The notes beneath the pieces are model-generated. The model worked only from the letters and a program-made list of their open reading frames with translations. It did no database searches and was not told the DNA's origin. A stretch of DNA of 64,000 nucleotides from Rhizobium sp. Q54 (GTDB lineage: Bacteria > Pseudomonadota > Alphaproteobacteria > UBA2966 > CAIVPW01). Shown one piece after another: positions 9,849 to 19,007 of the stretch. Every line of letters starts with the position of its first letter. Position 1 is the first letter of the stretch. Location of the stretch: assembly GCA_945947575.1 (NCBI GenBank), contig CAMEYM010000001.1, forward strand, positions 94,582 through 158,581, read 5' to 3'. The translations under genes were made by a program, and so were the position numbers.

Positions 9849-10769
9849 ATGCGGCGCATCCTCGTCATCAAGCATGGCGCGCTTGGGGACTTCGTCTTGG
9901 CGACGGGTCCGTTCACTGCAATTCGCGCGCACCATCTCGGCGACAACGTCACCCTTCTGACGACGCCGCCCTACGTCGACTTCGCCCGTCAAAGCCGCCT
10001 GTTCGATCAGGTGTGGGTCGACACGCGTCCCGGCATCGTCCAGGTGAGCGCGTGGTGGTCGCTGCTGCGGCGGTTGCGCGACGAGCCCATCGCGCGCGTC
10101 TACGACCTGCAGACCTCGTCGCGCTCGAGCTTCTACTTCCGCCTGCTGCCGCGTCCGAAGCCCGAGTGGTCCGGCATCGCCCGCGGTGCCTCGCACCCCC
10201 ACGCGGGGCCGGAGCGCGTGCGCCTGCACACCATCGATCGCCAAGCCGAGCAGCTGCGGCTCGCCGGCATCGAGCACGTGCCGCATCCCGATCTGTCGTG
10301 GGCCAAGGCCGATATCAGCCACCTGACGCTGCCGCGCTCCTTCGCCCTGCTGGCGCCCGGTGGCTCCGCCCATCGGCCCGAGAAGCGCTGGCCCGCGTCC
10401 CACTTCGCCGAGCTCACTCGGGAGCTCGCCAAGTCCGGCATCGCTGCCGTGGCGATCGGCGGCAAGGAGGACGCAGGCGCGACGCGCGCGGTCGCCGAGG
10501 CCGGCGGCATCGATCTCACGGGCGGCACCACGCTCGCTGAGGTGGTCGAGCTGGCCCGGCGCGCCAAGGTCGCCATCGGCAACGACACCGGTCCCATGCA
10601 CCTCGCCGCCACCGCCGGCTGCCGCTCGGTCGTGCTGTTCTCCCATGCCTCCGACCCGGCCCTGTGCGCCCCGCGCGGGCCGGTGGTGCGGGTCCTGCGC
10701 AAGCCGGTCCTCGCCCAGCTGCCGGTGGCCGATGTGGTGGAAGCCGCCTTGAAGGGGATGGACGCCTAG
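9849..10769 (+). CDS. ADP-heptose:LPS heptosyltransferase family (GT9)
   Basis: 306 aa. MRRILVIKHGALGDFVLATGPFTAIRAHH N-terminus and GNDTGPMHLAA motif. Confidence 0.8.
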   Translation: MRRILVIKHGALGDFVLATGPFTAIRAHHLGDNVTLLTTPPYVDFARQSRLFDQVWVDTRPGIVQVSAWWSLLRRLRDEPIARVYDLQTSSRSSFYFRLLPRPKPEWSGIARGASHPHAGPERVRLHTIDRQAEQLRLAGIEHVPHPDLSWAKADISHLTLPRSFALLAPGGSAHRPEKRWPASHFAELTRELAKSGIAAVAIGGKEDAGATRAVAEAGGIDLTGGTTLAEVVELARRAKVAIGNDTGPMHLAATAGCRSVVLFSHASDPALCAPRGPVVRVLRKPVLAQLPVADVVEAALKGMDA

Positions 10770-10814
10770 CCTACTTTCCCGCCAGCTTTTCCCGCTTACA
10801 AAGCAGGCTCTCTC

Positions 10815-12755
10815 GTGGTCGCCCTGACGCTTCCGGACGGCAAGGTCCGCAATTATCCCGGCCCGGTAACGGGCGCCGAGCTGGCCAAGGACATCGGTCC
10901 GGGCCTGGCGAAAGCCGCCATGGCGATTCGCGTCAACGGCAAGGTGTGGGATCTCTCGCGCCCGATCGATCAGGACGCGGCGGTCTCGATCGTCACGCGA
11001 AAGGACGACGACGCGACGGTTTACGACATCATCCGTCACGACACGGCACACATCCTCGCCGAGGCCGTGAAAGAGCTGTACCCGGAGACGCAGGTCACGA
11101 TCGGCCCGAATGTCGAGGACGGCTTCTACTACGACTTCGCGCGCAAAGACCCGTTCACGCCTGAAGACCTCGCGCGCATCGAGGATCGCATGCGCGAAAT
11201 CGTCAAGCGCAACGAGCCGCTGGTGCGCGAGGTGTGGGACCGCACGCGCGCGGTCGCCTACTTCGAGAGTCTCGGCGAGAAGTACAAGGCCCAACTCATT
11301 GCAGGCTTCCCGCCCAATGAGGACGTCAGCGTCTACCGCCAAGGCGAGTTCATCGACCTGTGCCGCGGCCCGCACGGTCCGTCGACGGGCCACATCGGCC
11401 AGGGCTTCAAGCTGATGAAGCTCGCCGGCGCCTATTGGCGCGGCGACTCCAAGAACGAGATGCTGCAGCGCGTCTACGGCACGGCGTGGCGCGACGAGAA
11501 AGAGCTCGCCGCCTACCTGCACCGCATCGAGGAGGCCGAGCGCCGCGACCATCGCCGCCTGGGCCGCGAGATGGACCTCTTCCACTTCCAGGAAGAGGCC
11601 GCGGGCATGCCGTTCTGGCACGCCAAGGGCTGGACGTTGTACCGCGTCCTCGAGGACTACATCCGCGCCCGCCTCAAGACCGCCAACTACATCGAGGTGC
11701 ACACGCCGCAGCTCATCGACCGCTCCTTGTGGGAGCAGTCGGGGCACTGGGAGAAGTTCGGCCAGAACATGTACACGACCGAGTCGGAAGACCGGACGTG
11801 GGCGTTGAAGCCGATGAACTGCCCGGCGCACATCCAGATCTACAAGCAGGGCATCAAGAGCTACCGCGACCTGCCGCTGCGCATGGCAGAGTTCGGCTGC
11901 TGCCACCGCTTCGAGCCATCGGGCGCGCTGCATGGCTTGATGCGCGTGCGCGCCTTTACGCAGGACGATGCACACATCTTCTGCACGGAAGAGCAGATCA
12001 CGCCGGAAACGAAGGCGTTCTGCGAGCTCTTGCTCGACGTCTACAAAGACTTCGGCTTCACGGACGTGCGCGTGAAGTTCTCCGATCGTCCCAAGGTGCG
12101 CGCCGGCTCCGACGAGACGTGGGATCGCGCCGAGGGTGCATTGAAGGCGGCCGCGGAGGCCGCCGGCCTCCAGGTCCTCCTCAACCCCGGCGAAGGCGCG
12201 TTCTACGGACCGAAGCTCGAGTTCGTGCTGCGCGACGCCATCGGCCGCGACTGGCAGTGCGGCACGCTCCAGGTGGACTTCGTGCTGCCCGAGCGCCTCG
12301 GCGCCCAGTACACGGCCGAGGACGGCACGCGCCAGCGCCCGGTCATGCTGCACCGCGCCATCCTGGGCTCGCTCGAGCGCTTTACGGGCGTGCTCATCGA
12401 GCACTACGCCGGCCGCATGCCGCTGTGGCTGGCTCCGGTCCAGGTCGCCGTGGTCACGATCACGCAGGAGGGCGACGCCTATGCCACGGAGGTGGACGGC
12501 CTTCTGAAGGCCGCCGGCCTGCGCCCGGTGCTCGACCTGTCCAACGACAAGATCAACTACAAGATCCGCGAGCACTCTCTCGCCAAGGTCCCCGTCATCC
12601 TCGCCATCGGCAAGCGCGAGGCGGCGGAGCGGACGGTCTCTATCCGAAGGCTAGGCTCCGAGCGCCAGGAAGTCCTTGCGCTGGAGGAGGCCCTGGCTAG
12701 ACTTACGGCAGAAGCTCAGGTCGGTGGCCAGCGTCTGGCAGCCGCCGCCGAGTGA
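10815..12755 (+). CDS. thrS: Threonine--tRNA ligase
   Basis: 646 aa with GTG start. TGS domain ([14 protein letters not shown]), second additional domain, class II core motifs and anticodon-binding domain. Collinear with E. coli ThrS. Confidence 0.95.
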
Positions 12756-12817
12756 CCCCATTTCAGCGGAACCGGGCCAACAAGACCGCGGACCGTTCAC
12801 AGCCAAGGGAGCGATAG

Positions 12818-13351
12818 ATTCGGAGACCACAGACGACGCCGCCCGTTCGCAAGGGCCCGCGCATCAACGACATGATCAACGTCGCCACCGTGCGACTCAT
12901 CGATGAAACAGGCGAGAACGTCGGCGTAAAGACCATCAGCGAGGCCATCGCCATGGCCGTCGCGGTGGGACTCGACCTCGTCGAGATTTCCCCAAACTCC
13001 GACCCGCCCGTCGCCAAGATCCTCGACTTCGGCAAGTTCAAGTACGAGGAGCAGAAGAAGGCGAACGTCGCGCGCAAGAAGCAGAAGGTCATCGAGATCA
13101 AGGAGATCAAGCTTCGCCCCAACATCGACATCCACGACTACGGTGTGAAGATGAAGGCGATGAAGGGCTTCCTTGAGGAAGGCGACAAGGTGAAGGTCAC
13201 GCTGCGCTTCCGCGGCCGTGAGCTCGCCCATCAGCATCGCGGTCTCGAAGTCCTGCACCGCGTTCAGGGCGACCTCCAGGAGCTCGCCAAGGTCGAGCAG
13301 TTCCCGACGATGGAAGGCCGCCAGATGACCATGGTGATGTCTCCGAAATAG
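12818..13351 (+). CDS. infC: Translation initiation factor IF-3; non-canonical ATT start codon
   Basis: In-frame extension from the stop at 12815-17 gives [35 protein letters not shown]..., collinear with the E. coli IF3 N-terminus. SD aagggag lies 7 nt upstream. AUU start is the conserved autoregulatory feature of infC. Confidence 0.9.
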
Positions 13352-13513
13352 GCCACCGTCATGCCCGGACTTGATCCGGGCAACCACGCACCGACAACAA
13401 GCGCGGCCTCCGCACCGGATGCCGCGCTTTTCGTTTTCATCTCCCCTTCCCGGGGGAGGGCAGGGTGGGGATACGCTGTGCGGGACACGGTGCCGTATGC
13501 GGAGCAAGCTCGG

Positions 13514-13753
13514 ATGGATTCTCTTTCCCTCTTCGGCCTCCTCGCCGTCTCGGCGATGCTCGTCTTCTACGCGCTCGAAGAGCGCAACCCGGTCTACGTC
13601 CTGTGGTTCGCGCTCGCCTGCATCGCCGCGAGTCTCTACGGCTTCTTGCAGGGTGCGTGGCCGTTCGGCCTGGTCGAGATGGTGTGGGCCTACGTGGCCT
13701 GGCGGCGCTACCGCGCTAAGGTCACTCCGCCGCGGCCACCGTCCGTGGCCTGA
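13514..13753 (+). CDS. Small two-TM membrane protein of unknown function
   Basis: 79 aa from MDSLSLFGLLAVSAMLVFYALEERNPVYVLWFALACIAASLYGF. Strong GC3 bias and two hydrophobic helices. Confidence 0.45.
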   Translation: MDSLSLFGLLAVSAMLVFYALEERNPVYVLWFALACIAASLYGFLQGAWPFGLVEMVWAYVAWRRYRAKVTPPRPPSVA

Positions 13754-14351
13754 GCTCGCCCAGCGCCTGCCGGATCACCTGCACCGAAGCGATGAGGGCG
13801 AGTGTCGCCATGCCGGCGCCGACGATCAGGTCGGGCCAGTGCGTCGCCGTTCCCCACACGCCCGCCGCTGCCGCGAGCACGGCGACGTTGCCGATCGCAT
13901 CGTTGCGGCTGCACAGCCACGCCGAGCGCAGGTTCGATTCCGCGGCACGGAAGCGATAGAGCAGGACAGCGCACGCGACGTTGGCGGCCAGCGCGAGCGC
14001 ACCCACCAGTCCCATCGTGCCGTGCGCCGGCGCCTCGGCGTTGCCGAACCCGATCGCGGCGCTCGCCAAGATCACCAGCCCGATGGCGAACATGGCGCCG
14101 CCCTTCACGAGCGCCGCGCCGGCGCGCCACGTCAACGAGCGCGACAGGACAAAAAGGCCGACGCCGTAGGTCGCGGCGTCGCCCAGGAAGTCGAGCGAGT
14201 CGGCTTGCAGCGCCAGCGAGCCCGCCGCCACGCCCGCGCTGATCTCGGCGACGAACATGCCGCCGTTCACCGCCAGCACGGTCCACAGCACGCGCCGCAC
14301 GCTCCGGTCGCGCGCTGCCTCAACGTCGACTTCGCAGCAGTCGTGGCCCAT
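13722..14351 (-). CDS. Cation diffusion facilitator (CDF) family transporter, six-TM core without C-terminal cytoplasmic domain
   Basis: 209 aa. TM2/TM5 metal-site motifs (LQADSLDFLGD, SRNDAIGN) typical of CzcD/ZitB-type CDFs. Start overlaps the arsR stop. Confidence 0.75.
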   Translation of the reverse strand: MGHDCCEVDVEAARDRSVRRVLWTVLAVNGGMFVAEISAGVAAGSLALQADSLDFLGDAATYGVGLFVLSRSLTWRAGAALVKGGAMFAIGLVILASAAIGFGNAEAPAHGTMGLVGALALAANVACAVLLYRFRAAESNLRSAWLCSRNDAIGNVAVLAAAAGVWGTATHWPDLIVGAGMATLALIASVQVIRQALGELRPRTVAAAE

Positions 14352-14686
14352 CAGTCCGCGCCCCCGCGATGGTCGTCGTGCGTGTGATCGGACTCGGGGG
14401 GCTCGGCGACGTGGGCCACCAGGTCGCCGATCACCGAGCGCACGTGGTCGTCGGCCGCCAGGTAGAACACCTGCTTGCCCTGCTTCCGCGCCCGCACCAG
14501 ACGCGCGGCGCGCAGCAGGCGCAGGTGGTGGCTCACCAGCGACGGCGCCAGGCTGAGCTCGTCGGCGATCGCCCCCACCGCGCGTTCCTCATCGAGGCAC
14601 ACCAGCAGGATGCGCAGCCGGTTGGCGTCGCCCATGACGTGCAGCATCTCGGCAAGCTCGGTGGTCTGGTCGGGGGAAAGGCGCAC
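14351..14686 (-). CDS. ArsR/SmtB family metal-responsive transcriptional repressor
   Basis: 111 aa winged-HTH protein with DANRLRILLVCLDEERAVGAIADELSLAPSLVSHHLRLLRAARLV. Probably a Zn/Cd sensor, since it sits in an operon with the CDF. Confidence 0.85.
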   Translation of the reverse strand: MRLSPDQTTELAEMLHVMGDANRLRILLVCLDEERAVGAIADELSLAPSLVSHHLRLLRAARLVRARKQGKQVFYLAADDHVRSVIGDLVAHVAEPPESDHTHDDHRGGAD

Positions 14687-14700
14687 GGCTCACTCAATAC

Positions 14701-14722
14701 ATTTGAACACCTGTTCATATAT
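14701..14722. promoter_or_regulatory. ArsR/SmtB-type 12-2-12 operator: aTTTGAACAccTGTTCAtATat
   Basis: Perfect TGAACA-N2-TGTTCA inverted repeat 15 bp upstream of the arsR start codon. Matches the SmtB/CzrA operator consensus. Confidence 0.55.
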
Positions 14723-14858
14723 CATGAGGAGGCCCGCGTGGCAAATTGCTCGGCCGCCCCCGATTTCCCGCGCCTTCGCTTGCGTGCCCAGGGTTCGGTC
14801 GCTATAAAGCCGCGTCTTCCGGGTGGTCACCAGGGCCCCCGGAGCCAGGATTCCTGTC

Positions 14859-15056
14859 ATGTCCAAGATGAAGACCAAGAGCGGCGCCAAGAAGCGCTTC
14901 AAGATCACTGCGAGCGGCAAGGTCAAGACCGCCCAGGTCGGCAAGCGCCACCGCCTCCTCAACAATTCGCCCAAGCGCACGCGCAACCTGCGCGGCACCG
15001 CGGTGTTGGCGGAGCCGGATGCGAAGCGCGCCAAGAAGTGGATGCCGTACGGCTAA
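14859..15056 (+). CDS. rpmI: 50S ribosomal protein L35
   Basis: [23 protein letters not shown]..., preceded by SD ggag. Confidence 0.9.
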
Positions 15057-15079
15057 GCTAGAAACGTAAAGGTAAGCAG

Positions 15080-15439
15080 ATGTCTCGCGTCTCCCGCGCC
15101 GTACCGCGCAAGGCCCGCCACGCCAAGATCTTCAAGCTGGCGAAGGGTCAGCGCAACCGGGCGAAGAACAACTACCGGATCGCGTTCCGCCGCGTCACCC
15201 ACGCGCTCAAGTATGCGTACCGTGACCGCCGCAACAAGAAGCGCGACTTCCGCGCGCTCTGGATCCAGCGCATCAACGCCGCCGCGCGCGAGCACGGCCT
15301 CACCTACGGCCGATTTATCCATGGCCTCAAGGTCGTGGGCATCGAGTTGGACCGTAAGGTTCTCGCCGATATCGCCGTTCGCGACCCTGCGGCCTTCAAG
15401 ATCCTGGCCGAGCAGGCGAGCGCGGCCGGAGCGTCCTAG
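15080..15439 (+). CDS. rplT: 50S ribosomal protein L20
   Basis: [35 protein letters not shown]... over 119 aa. Confidence 0.95.
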
Positions 15440-15462
15440 GCGCAGCGGCATCCTCATTTGAT

Positions 15463-15500
15463 CCGAAGAAGGGGCCCGTTCCGCGCGGCCCCTTTTTCTT
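15463..15500 (+). terminator. Rho-independent terminator after rplT (ggggcc-loop-ggcccc followed by TTTTTCTTT)
   Basis: GC stem plus T tract read directly from the sequence. Confidence 0.7.
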
Positions 15501-15513
15501 TGGTGCATAGACG

Positions 15514-16617
15514 ATGGAAGACCTCGACTCACTGACCGCGTCCCTGCTGGCCGAGATCGCGCGCACCGACAACGCCGCCGCCCTCGAAGAGCTGCGCGTT
15601 TCTGCCCTCGGCAAGAAGGGCACCATCACCGGCCTGGTGAAGACTCTCGGCGCCATGGACGCCGAGGAGCGCAAGGTCAAAGGCGCTGCGTTCAACGCCG
15701 CCAAGGACCGCATCGCCGCCGCCCTCGACGCCCGCAAGGCCGAGCTCGCCGTGCGCGAGCTCGACGCGCGCCTCGCCTTCGAGCGCGTCGATGTCACGCT
15801 GCCCGTCCGCCACGAAGCGCAAGGGCGCATCCACCCGGTGAGCCAGGTCACCGAGGAGATCACCGCGATCTTCGCCGACATGGGATTCACCGTCGCGGAA
15901 GGTCCCGACATCGAGGACGACTGGCACAACTTCACGGCGCTCAACATCCCGCCCAACCATCCGGCGCGGCAGATGCACGACACGTTCTATCTCCCGTCGC
16001 GCCCTGCGGGCGCGCAAACCAATACGGATGCGCAGGGCGAGACCATGCTGCTGCGCACGCACACCTCGCCCGTGCAGATCCGCCACATGCAGTCGGGCCC
16101 GCCGCCGCACCGCATCATCGCGCCCGGCCGCACCTACCGCTGCGACTCGGACATGACGCACACGCCCATGTTTCATCAGGTCGAAGGCCTCGTGATCGAC
16201 CGCGACATCCACATGGGCCACTTGAAGGGCTGCCTGGAAGAATTCCTGCGCGCCATCTTCGGCGTGCCCGATCTGAAGTACCGCCTGCGCCCGTCGCACT
16301 TCCCGTTCACCGAGCCGTCCGCCGAGATGGACATCGGCTGCTCGCGCAAGGGCGGCGTGCTGAAGATCGGCGAGGGCGACGACTGGCTCGAGATTCTCGG
16401 CTGCGGCATGGTTCACCCCAGGGTGCTGGAGTACGCCGGCGTCGATCCGAACCAGTGGCAGGGCTTTGCGTTCGGCCTCGGCATCGACCGCATCGCCATG
16501 CTCAAGTACGGCATCCCCGATCTGCGCGCCTTCTTCGACGCCGACGTGCGCTGGCTGCGCCACTACGGCTTCGCGGCGAACGACGTGCCGAGCCTTGCCA
16601 CGGGGTTGAATCGATGA
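15514..16617 (+). CDS. pheS: Phenylalanine--tRNA ligase alpha subunit
   Basis: 367 aa with class II motifs. The stop overlaps the pheT ATG (ATGA). Confidence 0.95.
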
Positions 16618-19007
16618 AGTTCACCCTCGGCTGGCTCCAGCAGCACCTCGACACCCCGGCCACCGCGCAGCAGGTTGCCGACAAGCTGACCGCCATCGGC
16701 TTGGAGGTCGAAAGCGTCTCCGATCCCGCGTCGGCGCTGGCGGCGTTCACCGTCGCCCACGTCTTGGAGGCGAAGCCACACCCGCAGGCCGACCGCCTGC
16801 GCCTGTGCACCGTGCAGACCGCCACCGGCACGGTCGAAGTCGTGTGCGGCGCGCCCAACGCCCGCACCGGCATGAAGGCGGTATACGCCCCGATCGGCGC
16901 GACGATTCCCGCAAGCGGCGACGTCCTCAAGAAAGCAAAGATCCGCGGCGTCGAATCGAACGGCATGCTCGTCTCCGAGCGCGAGCTCGGTCTTTCCGAC
17001 GAGCACGAAGGCATCATCGAGGTCGCTAGCGACGCCGCCATTGGAGCTTCGTTCGCGTCGATACGCGGCCTCGACGACGCGGTCATCGACATCTCCGTAA
17101 CGCCGAACCGCGGCGATTGCCTCGGCGTCTTTGGGATCGCGCGCGACCTCGCCGCCGCCGGTCTTGGGCGCCTGAAGCCGCTGGCGATCAGGCCCATCGC
17201 GGGCAAATTCAAGTCTCCCATCGGCGTGTCGCTGCAATTCACGCCCGACACGACGAGCGCCTGCAGCTACTTCGTCGGCCGCACCGTGCGCAACGTCAAG
17301 AACGGCCCGAGCCCCGAGTGGCTGCAGAAGTTCCTGCGCGCCGTCGGCCTGCGCCCGATCTCCGCCCTGGTCGACATGACCAACTACATGTCGCTCGCCT
17401 TCGCGCGCCCCCTCCACGTCTTCGACGCGGACAAAGTGTCCGGCAACCTGCACGTCCGTCTCTCGCGCAACGGGGAAAAGCTCGCCGGCCTCAACGGCAA
17501 GGAGTACGTGCTCGACGACCAGGTCACCGTCATCGCCGACGACTCCGGCGTCCTTGCCATGGGCGGCGTCGTCGGCGGCGAACCGTCCGGCTGCACCGAC
17601 GCGACCAGGAACGTCTTCATCGAATCCGCGATATTCGACACCCTGCGCACCGCCTCCACCGGCCGCCGCTACGAGATCATCTCCGACGCGCGCTTCCGGT
17701 TCGAGCGCGGCGTCGATCCGGAATTCGTGGGTCCTGGCATCGAGGAAGCGACGCGCCTCGTCCAGGAAATGTGCGGCGGCGAAGCCTCCGAGCTCGTCGT
17801 CACCGGCACCAAGCCCGCCTGGCAGCACGAGATCAAGGTGCGCCCGGCGCGCGTAAAGTCGCTCGGCGGTCTCGATCTATCGCCGCACGACGCGAGCCGC
17901 GTCCTGCAGGCGCTCGGCTGCCGCGTCGAGGATCGCGCCGGCGAAACCTTCGTCACGCCGCCGTCCTGGCGCCCCGACCTCGTTGGGGAGGCCGACTGCG
18001 TCGAGGAAGTCGTGCGCATCGTCGGCATCGACAAGGTGCCGCCGGTCTCGCTGCCGCGCGCCCGCGGCGTGCCGCGCCCCGCCCTCAATCCGTTGCAGCG
18101 CCGCGCCGGCATCGCCCGCCGCACGCTCGCCGCGCGCGGCCTGCTCGAGGCCGTGACGTTCTCGTTCACCGCGGCCAAGCTCGCGCGCCTGTTCGGCCAC
18201 ACCGATCCGAACCTCGTGCTGCAGAACCCGATCTCGGCGGACCTCGACGTCCTGCGTCCCACCGTGCTGCCGAACCTCGCCGCCGCCGTCGGCCGCAATC
18301 TCGACCGTGGCGCCGAAGACGTCGCCGTGTTCGAAGTAGGGCCGGCCTACGTCAGCGCCACGCCCGAAGGCCAGCTGCGCGTGGCCGGCGGCGTCCGCCA
18401 GGGCTCCGCGACGCCGCGCCAGTGGGCCGGCGGCGCGCGCCCCCTCGACGCGTTCGACGCCAAGGCCGACGCCCTCGCCGTGCTCGACGCGTGCGGTGTC
18501 GCCGGGGCAAGCGTCGAAGCCGGCGCTCCCGCCTGGTACCACCCCGGCCGCTCCGGCACCGTGCGCCTCGGCCCGAAGGCCGCGCTCGCCCACTTCGGCG
18601 AAGTGCACCCGCGCATCCTCGCCGAGCTCGGCCTCAAGGGCCCGCTCGTCGCGTTCGAGGTGTTCCTCAACGCCTTGCCGGCGTCCAAGGACAAGGGCAC
18701 GACGCGCGCCAAGCTCAACGCGCCCGACCTGTTGCCCGTGCTGCGCGACTTCGCCTTCGTCGTCGATGCGGCCGTCGCCGCCGCCACGCTCGTGCGCGCC
18801 GCCGAGAAAGCCGACCCGCTGATCGCCGGGGTGTCGCTGTTCGATTCCTTCTTGGGCAAGGGCATGGAGGCCGGCAAGAAGTCGCTCGCCATCACCGTCC
18901 GCATCCAGCCCGTCGAAAAGACCCTGACCGACCCCGAGATCGAAGCCATCGCCGCCAAGGTCGTCGCGGCCGTCACGAAGGCCACCGGCGGCACGCTGCG
19001 CAGCTAA
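16614..19007 (+). CDS. pheT: Phenylalanine--tRNA ligase beta subunit
   Basis: 798 aa from [35 protein letters not shown], with tRNA-binding, B3/4, B5 and FDX-ACB domains. The annotated ORF start at 16455 is a frame extension overlapping pheS. Confidence 0.95.

Follow-up and report, generated by a model that had tools for sequence, protein, structure and literature searches.

In E. coli-type genomes, rpmI follows infC within about 100 bp. For the ArsR/SmtB repressors, a 12-2-12 operator with the sequence AATACCTGAACA-GA-TGTTCAAGTATT has been published (PMC8790569). Among the transporters of the CDF superfamily, a class without the C-terminal domain was noted by Kolaj-Robin et al. 2015 (as cited in PMC6465983 and PMC8341793): these proteins count about 200 aa, consist of the membrane domain only, and their N-terminal tail is rich in Cys, His, Asp and Glu. 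According to reviews, no function has been demonstrated for them (PMC6465983).

In the window, i.e. the whole 64-kb stretch of DNA that was analysed, infC and rpmI are separated by 1,507 bp (13352-14858), in agreement with the roughly 1.5 kb of the first-pass annotation. The gap contains an ArsR/SmtB repressor, a CDF without cytoplasmic domain, a 79-aa membrane protein and a palindrome. All features named earlier were found again, with small corrections to coordinates and helix count (Table 1). The locus probably represents a self-contained, metal-derepressed efflux cassette that is insulated from infC and adjoins, in divergent orientation, an independent promoter of rpmI-rplT.

Table 1. Features of the infC-rpmI region, in window coordinates
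Feature	Positions	Strand	Remarks
thrS	10815-12755		upstream of infC
infC (IF3)	12818-13351	+	TIGR00168 3.5e-67; IF3_N and IF3_C
Intrinsic-terminator-like hairpin	13399-13440	+	hairpin followed by UUUUCGUUUUC; downstream of infC
Small membrane protein	13514-13753	+	79 aa; three-helix model; large unannotated family
CDF transporter	13722-14351	-	209 aa; PF01545 3.3e-15
arsR, ArsR/SmtB-family alpha-5-site metalloregulator	14351-14686	-	111 aa; GTG start at 14686; NF033788 1.9e-21
Predicted ArsR operator	14698-14723	none	imperfect 12-2-12 inverted repeat; core TGAACAccTGTTCA at 14704-14717
Putative arsR promoter	14716-14744	-	-35 TTGCCA (14744-14739); 16-17 nt spacer; -10 ATATAT/TATATG (14722-14716)
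Putative rpmI promoter	14779-14807	+	CTTGCG-N17-CTATAA
rpmI (L35)	14859-15056	+	ATG start; TIGR00001 4e-21
rplT (L20)	15080-15439	+	tblastn with window ORF

The first in-frame ATG of infC is found at 12872. The gene probably starts at the in-frame ATT at 12818-12820, which is preceded by GGAG, and the upstream residues are typical of an IF3 N-terminus. At the other side of the gap, the rplT ORF leads by tblastn to a gene of the related locus L001 that is called as PF00453 (Ribosomal_L20), with 97% identity and the same rpmI-rplT-pheS order. The GC content of the insert (0.72, versus 0.57-0.67 in the flanking translation genes) falls inside the local range, and a recent transfer deduced from base composition was rejected on that ground.

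The identification of the repressor as an ArsR/SmtB protein was borne out by its domain and its ligands. It contains the ArsR-type winged helix-turn-helix (PF01022, 1.1e-10, 41.7 bits against a cutoff of 22) and scores 75.7 bits against NF033788 (cutoff 55). The nearest solved relatives are CzrA (1e-15) and SmtB (4e-15), and D79, H81, H92 and E95 match the alpha-5 ligand positions column for column (D84, H86, H97 and H100 in CzrA). The tetrad is contained in DDHVRSVIGDLVAHVAE (residues 79-95), with the family's spacing Asp-x-His-x10-His-x2-Glu/His, and the D-x-H-x10-H-x2-E motif was present in all six ArsR sequences compared (the window, L001, L005, L008, L010 and L185). The window's protein is the only one of these six with a His-rich C-terminal tail. 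NmtR-like sensing of Ni/Co, which such a tail might suggest, was rejected as a clade feature, as the window's copy alone has it. A single conserved Cys (C30) is located in the alpha-3 region.

The repressor and CDF genes overlap by one base (TGATG). Upstream of arsR, a SmtB/CzrA-type operator had been pointed out at 14701-14722. The predicted operator is slightly longer than this, and its core is a perfect 6-2-6 repeat that lies within those limits and ends 17 nt from the GTG at 14686. The core is unique in the 64-kb window; with up to two mismatches allowed, 0.49 matches are expected by chance per 64 kb. The single occurrence is not compelling alone. The operator nevertheless stands out above chance because it is conserved in four orthologous loci with diverged flanks: it is kept as ATGAACAGATGTTCATATAT in L001, L005, L008 and L010. 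The same operator class was also found upstream of an unrelated, independent arsR-CDF pair in L185, and the window's operator matches the published 12-2-12 site. As in the rest of the family, the predicted operator is located at or near the promoter that would be regulated, where the putative arsR -10 element overlaps the operator edge. A strict sigma-70 consensus scan returned no promoters (0), that of arsR included. The promoters were instead picked out by visual comparison with the CTTGAC-N17-CTATAT type of Alphaproteobacteria, with conservation as backing. For arsR, a GGCAA block and the TATAT flank are kept in the clade alignment; its promoter is thus put forward from the reading of the sequence together with conservation in the clade.

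The partner gene had been described as a six-TM CDF lacking the cytoplasmic domain, and this was confirmed by the span of the PF01545 match and by a six-helix model. The match (56.8 bits, cutoff 26.6) covers positions 1-197 of the 198 in the model, i.e. the membrane domain, whereas the family TIGR01297 is hit below its cutoff (71.1 versus 82.35) and only over positions 2-198 of 285. The AlphaFold model (pLDDT 85) displays the six helices of the Cation_efflux membrane domain, and in a fold search it superposed on the membrane domains of ZnT3 and YiiP (TM-score 0.74-0.78). A sequence search of PDB chains with E up to 0.01 gave no match. The structural targets count 270-330 aa versus 209 aa here, and the protein ends nine residues past TM6, leaving no room for a cytoplasmic C-terminal domain. 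More than 5,900 homologues were collected, nearly all of 205-220 aa. Conserved in this family are an N-terminal CC/CH motif (the N-terminus reads MGHDCCEVDVE), D54 and D58 in TM2, and C147 and D151 in TM5. Site A of the superfamily reads (H/D)xxxD in TM2 and HxxxD in TM5. The D54-xxx-D58 pair is present in TM2; TM5 displays C147-xxx-D151, with a Cys at the usual position of His that is invariant in an alignment of 18 family sequences; site A was assigned by motif position rather than by residue-level superposition. The class is widespread in soil, marine and plasmid-borne contexts, with 771 plasmid records, and in other genomes this type of CDF is accompanied by a divergent MerR-type regulator or lacks any regulator.

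Regarding its position, the first-pass annotation had treated infC-rpmI as a conserved operon junction. This does not hold for the Alphaproteobacteria sampled, where the two genes are adjacent in only 15 of 68 informative species; another 15 carry inserts, and in 38 no rpmI was found within at least 3 kb. The cargo identified in the inserts of the loci scanned is unrelated: a binding protein, a hydratase with a dehydrogenase, a methylase, a TRAP transporter and a ferritin-like protein. An arsR-CDF pair between infC and rpmI was found in four relatives, namely L001 (IF3 96% identical), L005 (91%), L008 (90%) and L010 (79%). The identities of ArsR and CDF across these relatives follow the same rank order as those of ThrS, IF3 and L20. 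Since the insertion is common to the nearest relatives and its divergence keeps pace with that of the housekeeping genes, it is old and vertically inherited, ancestral to a clade of uncultured freshwater Alphaproteobacteria. The first-pass annotation had held that its regulatory idea would fall if the insertion were ancestral and universal in the lineage and transcription were not metal-responsive; the synteny comparison supplies the first half of this.

Downstream of infC, the hairpin is strongly stable upon folding (dG -22.9 kcal/mol, z -4.9, with 0 of 200 shuffles as stable), although a terminator scan had missed it due to an internal mismatch. Hairpin and T-run are kept in L001, L005 and L008, and a transcript of infC would end here. 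In L010 no terminator was found between infC and the 3' end of the CDF gene, and the 3' ends abut; the insulation of infC is therefore not universal in the clade. Upstream of rpmI, the putative promoter is invariant in all five clade loci, and a CTTGC(N)-N17-(G)CTATAA element precedes rpmI in nearly all sampled Alphaproteobacteria, whether infC is adjacent or not. Known regulatory RNAs were not found: Rfam gave no family, L20_leader included, for positions 10000-17000 of the window with E up to 1, and at the gathering threshold 12 related loci yielded neither a known leader nor any other RNA. From the terminator, the separate rpmI promoter and the lack of an Rfam family, neither co-transcription of infC with rpmI-rplT nor a known L20-binding leader would be expected here. 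As a separate observation, most other sampled Alphaproteobacteria display an apparently undescribed rpmI leader hairpin, which does not occur in the clade with this insertion. Its description comes from constrained folds of the individual sequences and from a covariance model of a 12-sequence subset; RNAalifold on a MAFFT alignment of the rpmI leaders placed the stems out of register.

The first-pass annotation had also listed a 79-aa two-TM protein as a component of the module. The gene is indeed present at the coordinates given, though its model shows three helices instead of two (pLDDT 70). The ORF is evidently a real gene by comparison with its homologues, of which there are at least 4,821, of 70-80 aa and 55-80% identity, starting at the same MD(S/A)L residues. 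E22, C36, YGFLQGAWPFG and E55 are invariant in the family, and neither Pfam nor NCBIfam matched the protein. Its 3' end overlaps that of the CDF gene by 32 bp. The gene occurs in L001-L004 and is missing from L005, L008 and L010. Because it is thus missing from three of the four relatives that carry arsR-CDF, the small protein is not a constant component of the cassette, and its place in the module was not upheld. Across the family, a minority but recurrent link to CDFs without C-terminal domain was observed. A Pfam census of the neighbours by ORF picking missed the CDFs in three loci, which were then found by tblastn.

In the mechanism proposed for the cassette, a dimer of the ArsR/SmtB-family protein would bind the 12-2-12 palindrome over its own -10/start region, thereby repressing the arsR-CDF bicistron. 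A divalent metal at the alpha-5 site (D79, H81, H92' and E95') would lower the affinity of ArsR for the DNA. This metal would most likely be Zn(II), with Co(II), Ni(II) and Cd(II) as possible alternatives. The translationally coupled six-helix CDF would then be made and export the metal. The predicted transport site is made up of D54/D58 (TM2) and C147/D151 (TM5), and a Cys/His-rich N-terminal tail is present where other CDFs have the cytoplasmic domain. Metal export is deduced from the superfamily alone, since the TM5 His is replaced by Cys and the class has no demonstrated function. Its arrival between infC and rpmI would date to the ancestor of the clade, with vertical inheritance of the cassette since. 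The terminator of infC itself would insulate it from infC, and at its other end it would stand back to back with the independent rpmI-rplT promoter common to the sampled class.

Other readings of the locus can be weighed against this efflux cassette. It had been suggested that the arsR promoter, when induced by metal, interferes or couples with infC (by antisense run-through) or with rpmI-rplT (by shared-spacer or divergent-promoter effects), which would link metal stress to the translation apparatus. The layout on which this was built is real: both promoters lie inside one 172-bp spacer, as claimed, arsR-CDF is convergent with infC, and in L010 nothing terminator-like separates the abutting 3' ends. 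The clade also lacks the rpmI leader hairpin of most other sampled Alphaproteobacteria, so that its rpmI regulation may differ. However, in the window, L001, L005 and L008 a strong conserved terminator hairpin separates infC from the module, and the window has 370 bp between the stops of infC and the CDF gene, with another gene in between. The putative promoters of arsR and rpmI form a divergent, non-overlapping pair, their -35 elements lying 34 bp apart and pointing away from each other. In L008, about 280 extra bp are found between operator and rpmI promoter; the spacing would thus not be under constraint, and the geometry needed for arsR/rpmI coupling is not conserved. Moreover, throughout the sampled class the same rpmI promoter is used without an arsR in its vicinity, and other lineages have unrelated genes in the same gap. 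With the infC terminator, the conserved rpmI promoter and the variable promoter spacing all speaking against it, transcriptional interference appears unsupported and is considered very unlikely. Sensing of a non-metal signal by ArsR, e.g. of redox or sulfur species (BigR/SqrR type), in which case the CDF-like protein would be no metal exporter, is extremely unlikely. Non-metal sensors do occur in the ArsR family, BigR and TsoR models gave weak matches under their thresholds, the lone C30 is conserved and CDFs without C-terminal domain have no established function (PMC6465983). Yet all matches to non-metal-sensor models are far under the cutoffs, the paired Cys of BigR is missing, and the alpha-5 tetrad is complete and conserved. 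The partner gene, furthermore, encodes a CDF fold with acidic and Cys residues at metal-site positions.

A three-part module, in which the small protein is a partner of the CDF (e.g. a regulatory or metal-handling subunit) or is linked to it via the overlapping convergent 3' ends, is doubtful. In independent lineages, homologues of the small protein do adjoin this CDF type: in L117 (convergent, 4-bp overlap) and L116 (divergent), and in L145, L147 and L150 a fusion protein containing it is followed by the CDF 7 bp later. A CDF thus lies beside a small-protein homologue in 6 of 80 loci, versus no CDF match in 77 control infC loci. One homologue was found inside a MerR/P-type ATPase/Czc metal island, another 0.8 kb downstream of a CsoR-like regulator, and the family shows invariant Glu and Cys residues. 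On the other hand, three relatives keep arsR-CDF without the small protein, and while this CDF type occurs in 771 plasmid records, the small protein occurs in only 3. Its nearest neighbours are spread over 94 Pfam families among 136, with no dominant partner. The gene lies on the other strand and does not belong to the arsR-CDF transcription unit, and the 3' overlap is not kept even in L001, where a 28-bp gap is found. A broader form of the idea has the small-protein family act with CDFs without C-terminal domain in metal handling, e.g. as an accessory subunit that replaces the cytoplasmic domain, with the gap as a growing metal-resistance islet. This is rather improbable as well. The reading fits the gap contents of several loci: L005 and L008 have arsR-CDF only, the window and L001 have the small protein in addition, and at this position L009 carries a P-type ATPase and a multicopper oxidase.

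The combination of ArsR/SmtB repressor, CDF without C-terminal domain and predicted operator was thus recognisable as the metal-efflux cassette that had been claimed. Ordinary CDF cassettes under ArsR control, such as this one, are routine units of metal homeostasis, and the finding as stated matters little. Its position reflects the frequent breakage of infC-rpmI in Alphaproteobacteria and not a regulatory innovation. Expectations from the E. coli/Bacillus operon do not transfer to this class, where a separate conserved promoter serves rpmI-rplT. The locus does provide a clean natural case in which a CDF without C-terminal domain stands under an ArsR sensor of the alpha-5 type with a conserved predicted operator, and could help to work out what this uncharacterised class of CDFs does. 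The rpmI leader hairpin and the link of the small-protein family to these CDFs are possibly more interesting.

Compared to the infC-rpmI-rplT operon of E. coli and B. subtilis, the order thrS-infC ... rpmI-rplT-pheS-pheT is the same and the unusual ATT start of infC is probably kept. In contrast, the window's infC has its own terminator and rpmI its own promoter, 1.5 kb of unrelated genes lie between them, and among the sampled Alphaproteobacteria an interrupted junction is commoner than an intact one.

The winged-helix ArsR/SmtB fold is shared with CzrA of the CzrA-CzrB system from Staphylococcus aureus and with SmtB from Synechococcus. The alpha-5 ligand spacing D-x-H-x10-H-x2-E is identical to that of SmtB, while the overall identity of ArsR to CzrA and SmtB is only about 35%. 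As in these systems, a 12-2-12 operator with a TGAACA-N2-TGTTCA core is found at the repressor's own promoter, and as in czrAB, the repressor gene is directly upstream of the CDF gene in one transcription unit. What differs is the His-rich tail of ArsR, missing from its orthologues, and the partner, a CDF without C-terminal domain and with Cys in place of the TM5 His. This partner, with about 210 aa, six helices, a stop right after TM6 and a Cys/His-rich N-terminal tail, shows no difference in kind from the class of Kolaj-Robin et al. 2015 and is a member of it.

Between infC and rpmI, the window carries an arsR-CDF pair and an ORF for a small membrane protein (Table). All the gap features described by the first-pass annotation are present, and their coordinates differ in small details only. 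The arsR stop codon and the start of the CDF (cation diffusion facilitator) gene overlap (TGATG). The start codon of infC is very probably ATT at 12818, 18 codons 5' of the first ATG: it is preceded by GGAG at 12808-12811, and the upstream in-frame residues resemble a typical IF3 N-terminus. An unusual start codon is known for the autoregulation of IF3, which the ATT of infC fits. ORF lists that are restricted to ATG, GTG and TTG shorten this gene.

Features of the infC-rpmI region (window positions unless a locus is named)
Feature	Position	Strand	Remark
thrS	10815-12755		
infC	ends 13351		
Hairpin, then UUUUCGUUUUC	13399-13440		3' of infC
infC-rpmI gap			1,507 bp
Small-protein ORF	13514-13753	plus	79 aa
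CDF gene	14351-13722	minus	209 aa
arsR (ArsR/SmtB protein)	14686-14351	minus	111 aa
Palindrome TGAACAccTGTTCA	14704-14717		within the 172-bp spacer
Inferred arsR promoter, -10 ATATAT/TATATG	14722-14716	arsR strand	from sequence and conservation
Inferred arsR promoter, -35 TTGCCA	14744-14739	arsR strand	from sequence and conservation
rpmI promoter element CTTGCG-N17-CTATAA	14779-14807		invariant in 5/5 clade loci
Region corresponding to the rpmI leader hairpin	14808-14858		
rpmI leader hairpin, comparison loci L011-L085	e.g. L011:6579-6614, L016:5913-5949		45-133 nt upstream of rpmI
rpmI	14859-15056		
rplT	15080-15439		followed by pheS, pheT

The arrangement had been read as an intrusion into a conserved infC-rpmI-rplT operon, and the comparison of relatives speaks against this. 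The infC loci of 80 species-level genomes (all Alphaproteobacteria, most of them metagenome-assembled) were ranked by IF3 similarity, and 68 had enough downstream sequence to be classified. Only 15 of these 68 have rpmI adjacent to infC, at 149-250 bp; in another 15 the two genes are separated by an insert and lie 0.47-3.75 kb apart, and in 38 no rpmI occurs within at least 3 kb of infC. The identified cargo is unrelated among the scanned inserts and comprises a periplasmic binding protein, an enoyl-CoA hydratase with a short-chain dehydrogenase, a DNA methylase, a TRAP transporter and a ferritin-like protein. The arsR-CDF insert is confined to the closest relatives, L001, L005, L008 and L010 (IF3 identity 96, 91, 90 and 79%), which together with the window make up the five clade loci; this CDF type occurs in none of 77 infC loci outside the clade. 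The ArsR/CDF identities of these four relatives (85/86, 86/76, 73/72 and 66/50%, respectively) drop in the same rank order as those of ThrS, IF3 and L20, which indicates a single old insertion followed by vertical descent. The cassette occupies a lineage-specific yet old chromosomal site. In the comparison locus L009 (IF3 identity 85%), a P-type cation ATPase, two unidentified ORFs and a multicopper oxidase are placed between infC and the CDF gene (L009:6786-12476), inside which the locus boundary falls. The infC-CDF slot there thus holds further metal genes, suggesting a metal-gene islet that is growing at the infC junction.

It had also been proposed that the cassette may exert metal-dependent transcriptional interference on the translation-factor/ribosomal operon. 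An element of the form CTTGC(N)-N17-(G)CTATAA is present upstream of rpmI in almost every sampled species, whether infC is nearby or not. Since it is independent of infC proximity, rpmI-rplT is predicted to be a transcription unit of its own across the sampled class. The hairpin 3' of infC is strong (dG -22.9 kcal/mol, z -4.9, equalled by 0 of 200 shuffles), and this terminator hairpin with its T-run is conserved in the window, L001, L005 and L008; L010 is the only one of the five clade loci in which it was not found. The -35 elements of arsR and rpmI are divergent and 34 bp apart, and in L008 about 280 extra bp separate the operator from the rpmI promoter. The architecture is not conserved as coupling would require, leaving the interference hypothesis without sequence support. 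If anywhere, an effect of convergent transcription would arise between the CDF gene and the small gene: in the window their 3' ends share 32 bp, but in L001 a gap of 28 bp lies between them.

The exact palindrome upstream of arsR occurs once in the window. With up to 2 mismatches, 0.49 chance matches are expected per 64 kb, so that a lone match is weak evidence. The convincing evidence for the predicted operator is its phylogenetic conservation: ATGAACAGATGTTCATATAT is retained in all four orthologous loci, while the spacer around it has diverged or acquired insertions. An independent, unrelated arsR-CDF pair (L185) carries TTGACA-at-ATATGAATA-AC-TATTCATAT directly upstream of arsR. The palindrome core is identical to a published 12-2-12 site of this regulator class (PMC8790569). 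The elements of the arsR promoter were absent from the matches of a strict consensus scan. As placed here, the predicted operator would span the -10 and start region of this promoter. Such a position is the usual geometry of a repressor.

The leader of rpmI holds a further conserved element. The motif GGG[CU]AUGCC follows the class-wide promoter, exactly in 24 of the 30 rpmI-containing loci and as a close variant in three more; it is part of a hairpin that is conserved in 27 of the 30 alphaproteobacterial species sampled. This hairpin is built from an outer stem of 5-9 bp that shows covariation, an internal loop, an inner GGC:GCC stem and a loop carrying an invariant (A)AGGGCAU. In a model-fitted alignment of 21 matches, which is biased towards the model's structure, 97.9% of the cells pair, 5 of 6 outer-stem pairs show compensatory changes and the observed covariation score is reached by 0 of 500 shuffles. 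No Rfam 15 family matches the rpmI leader loci at gathering score, and the literature consulted places L20 leaders in Gammaproteobacteria and Firmicutes only, plus a candidate in Deltaproteobacteria. One possibility is that the hairpin serves as a so far undescribed leader for ribosomal protein L20 or L35. A search with the covariance model gave no match in any of the five clade loci, where the 5' UTR of rpmI is shorter and contains a different or degenerate hairpin.

The 79-aa ORF is a real gene. Homologues of its product, 70-80 aa long and 55-80% identical, number at least 4,821 and extend to other phyla; E22, C36, YGFLQGAWPFG and E55 are invariant in the family. It is matched by no Pfam or NCBIfam model, and its structural model shows three helices with modest confidence. 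The gene is absent from L005, L008 and L010, pointing to a later arrival at the locus.

Its neighbours elsewhere (80 metagenome loci) are very diverse, most contexts being unrelated. Homologues of this CDF type lie within a few kb in 6 of the 80 loci, in about four independent arrangements. Among the comparison loci (L116, L117, L145, L147, L150, L176, L088-L093, L187 and L188), the gene is convergent with the CDF gene in L117, as in the window, with an overlap of 4 bp in L117, and divergent from it in L116. In L145 (1282-1893), L147 and L150 the small protein is fused in frame to a Cys-containing soluble domain of roughly 110 aa with IACTL and RACCAFL motifs, for which Pfam gives no match; a 206-aa CDF starts 7 bp after the fusion gene. 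One copy is part of a MerR / P-type ATPase / LspA / DUF411 / Czc island, and another lies 0.8 kb downstream of a CsoR-like regulator. Plasmids commonly carry this CDF type (771 records), but only 3 plasmid records hold the small protein, which counts against an obligate partnership. A homologue is also found on a 9.8-kb plasmid of a bioleaching Acidithiobacillus, among the few non-maintenance hypothetical genes. In Sphingomonas parapaucimobilis (L101:4001-4249) a homologue immediately precedes rpsM-rpsK-rpoA-rplQ; this second neighbourhood with a ribosomal cluster is probably a coincidence.

The identification of the module stands, as an alpha-5 ArsR/SmtB repressor with a CDF that lacks the C-terminal domain. 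The repressor matches the NCBIfam metalloregulator model (75.7 bits, cutoff 55), and its nearest solved relatives are CzrA from S. aureus and SmtB from Synechococcus (E about 1e-15). D79, H81, H92 and E95 align with all four alpha-5 metal ligands of these proteins, in an exact D-x-H-x10-H-x2-E motif that is kept in the four orthologues and in the unrelated L185 ArsR. A His-rich tail occurs in the window's copy only, among the ArsR sequences compared, and so says nothing general on metal specificity. In L005 (1552-1860) the arsR frame seems not to end where the CDF begins, as it usually does, but to continue out of frame into the CDF gene, and the source's gene caller left it uncalled; possible readings are a frameshift, an error in the assembly or a changed C-terminus.

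The transporter aligns with the complete Pfam membrane-domain model and ends there. Its structural model (from an 18-sequence alignment, pLDDT 85) has six helices, ends 9 residues past TM6 and superposes with TM-scores of 0.74-0.78 on the membrane domains of ZnT3, YiiP and SLC30A10, structures of 270-330 residues. Nearly all of its more than 5,900 homologues are 205-220 aa long. The family alignment shows an N-terminal tail rich in CC or CH, D54 and D58 in TM2, and C147 and D151 in TM5, the Cys standing where the usual TM5 His would be. Elsewhere this CDF type is accompanied by a divergent MerR-type regulator, an upstream ArsR or no regulator. CDFs that have N-terminal tails of this kind and no C-terminal domain form a recognised class, whose function is called unclear in reviews (PMC6465983, PMC8341793). 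The finding as stated is of little importance; repressor and transporter both belong to already known kinds.
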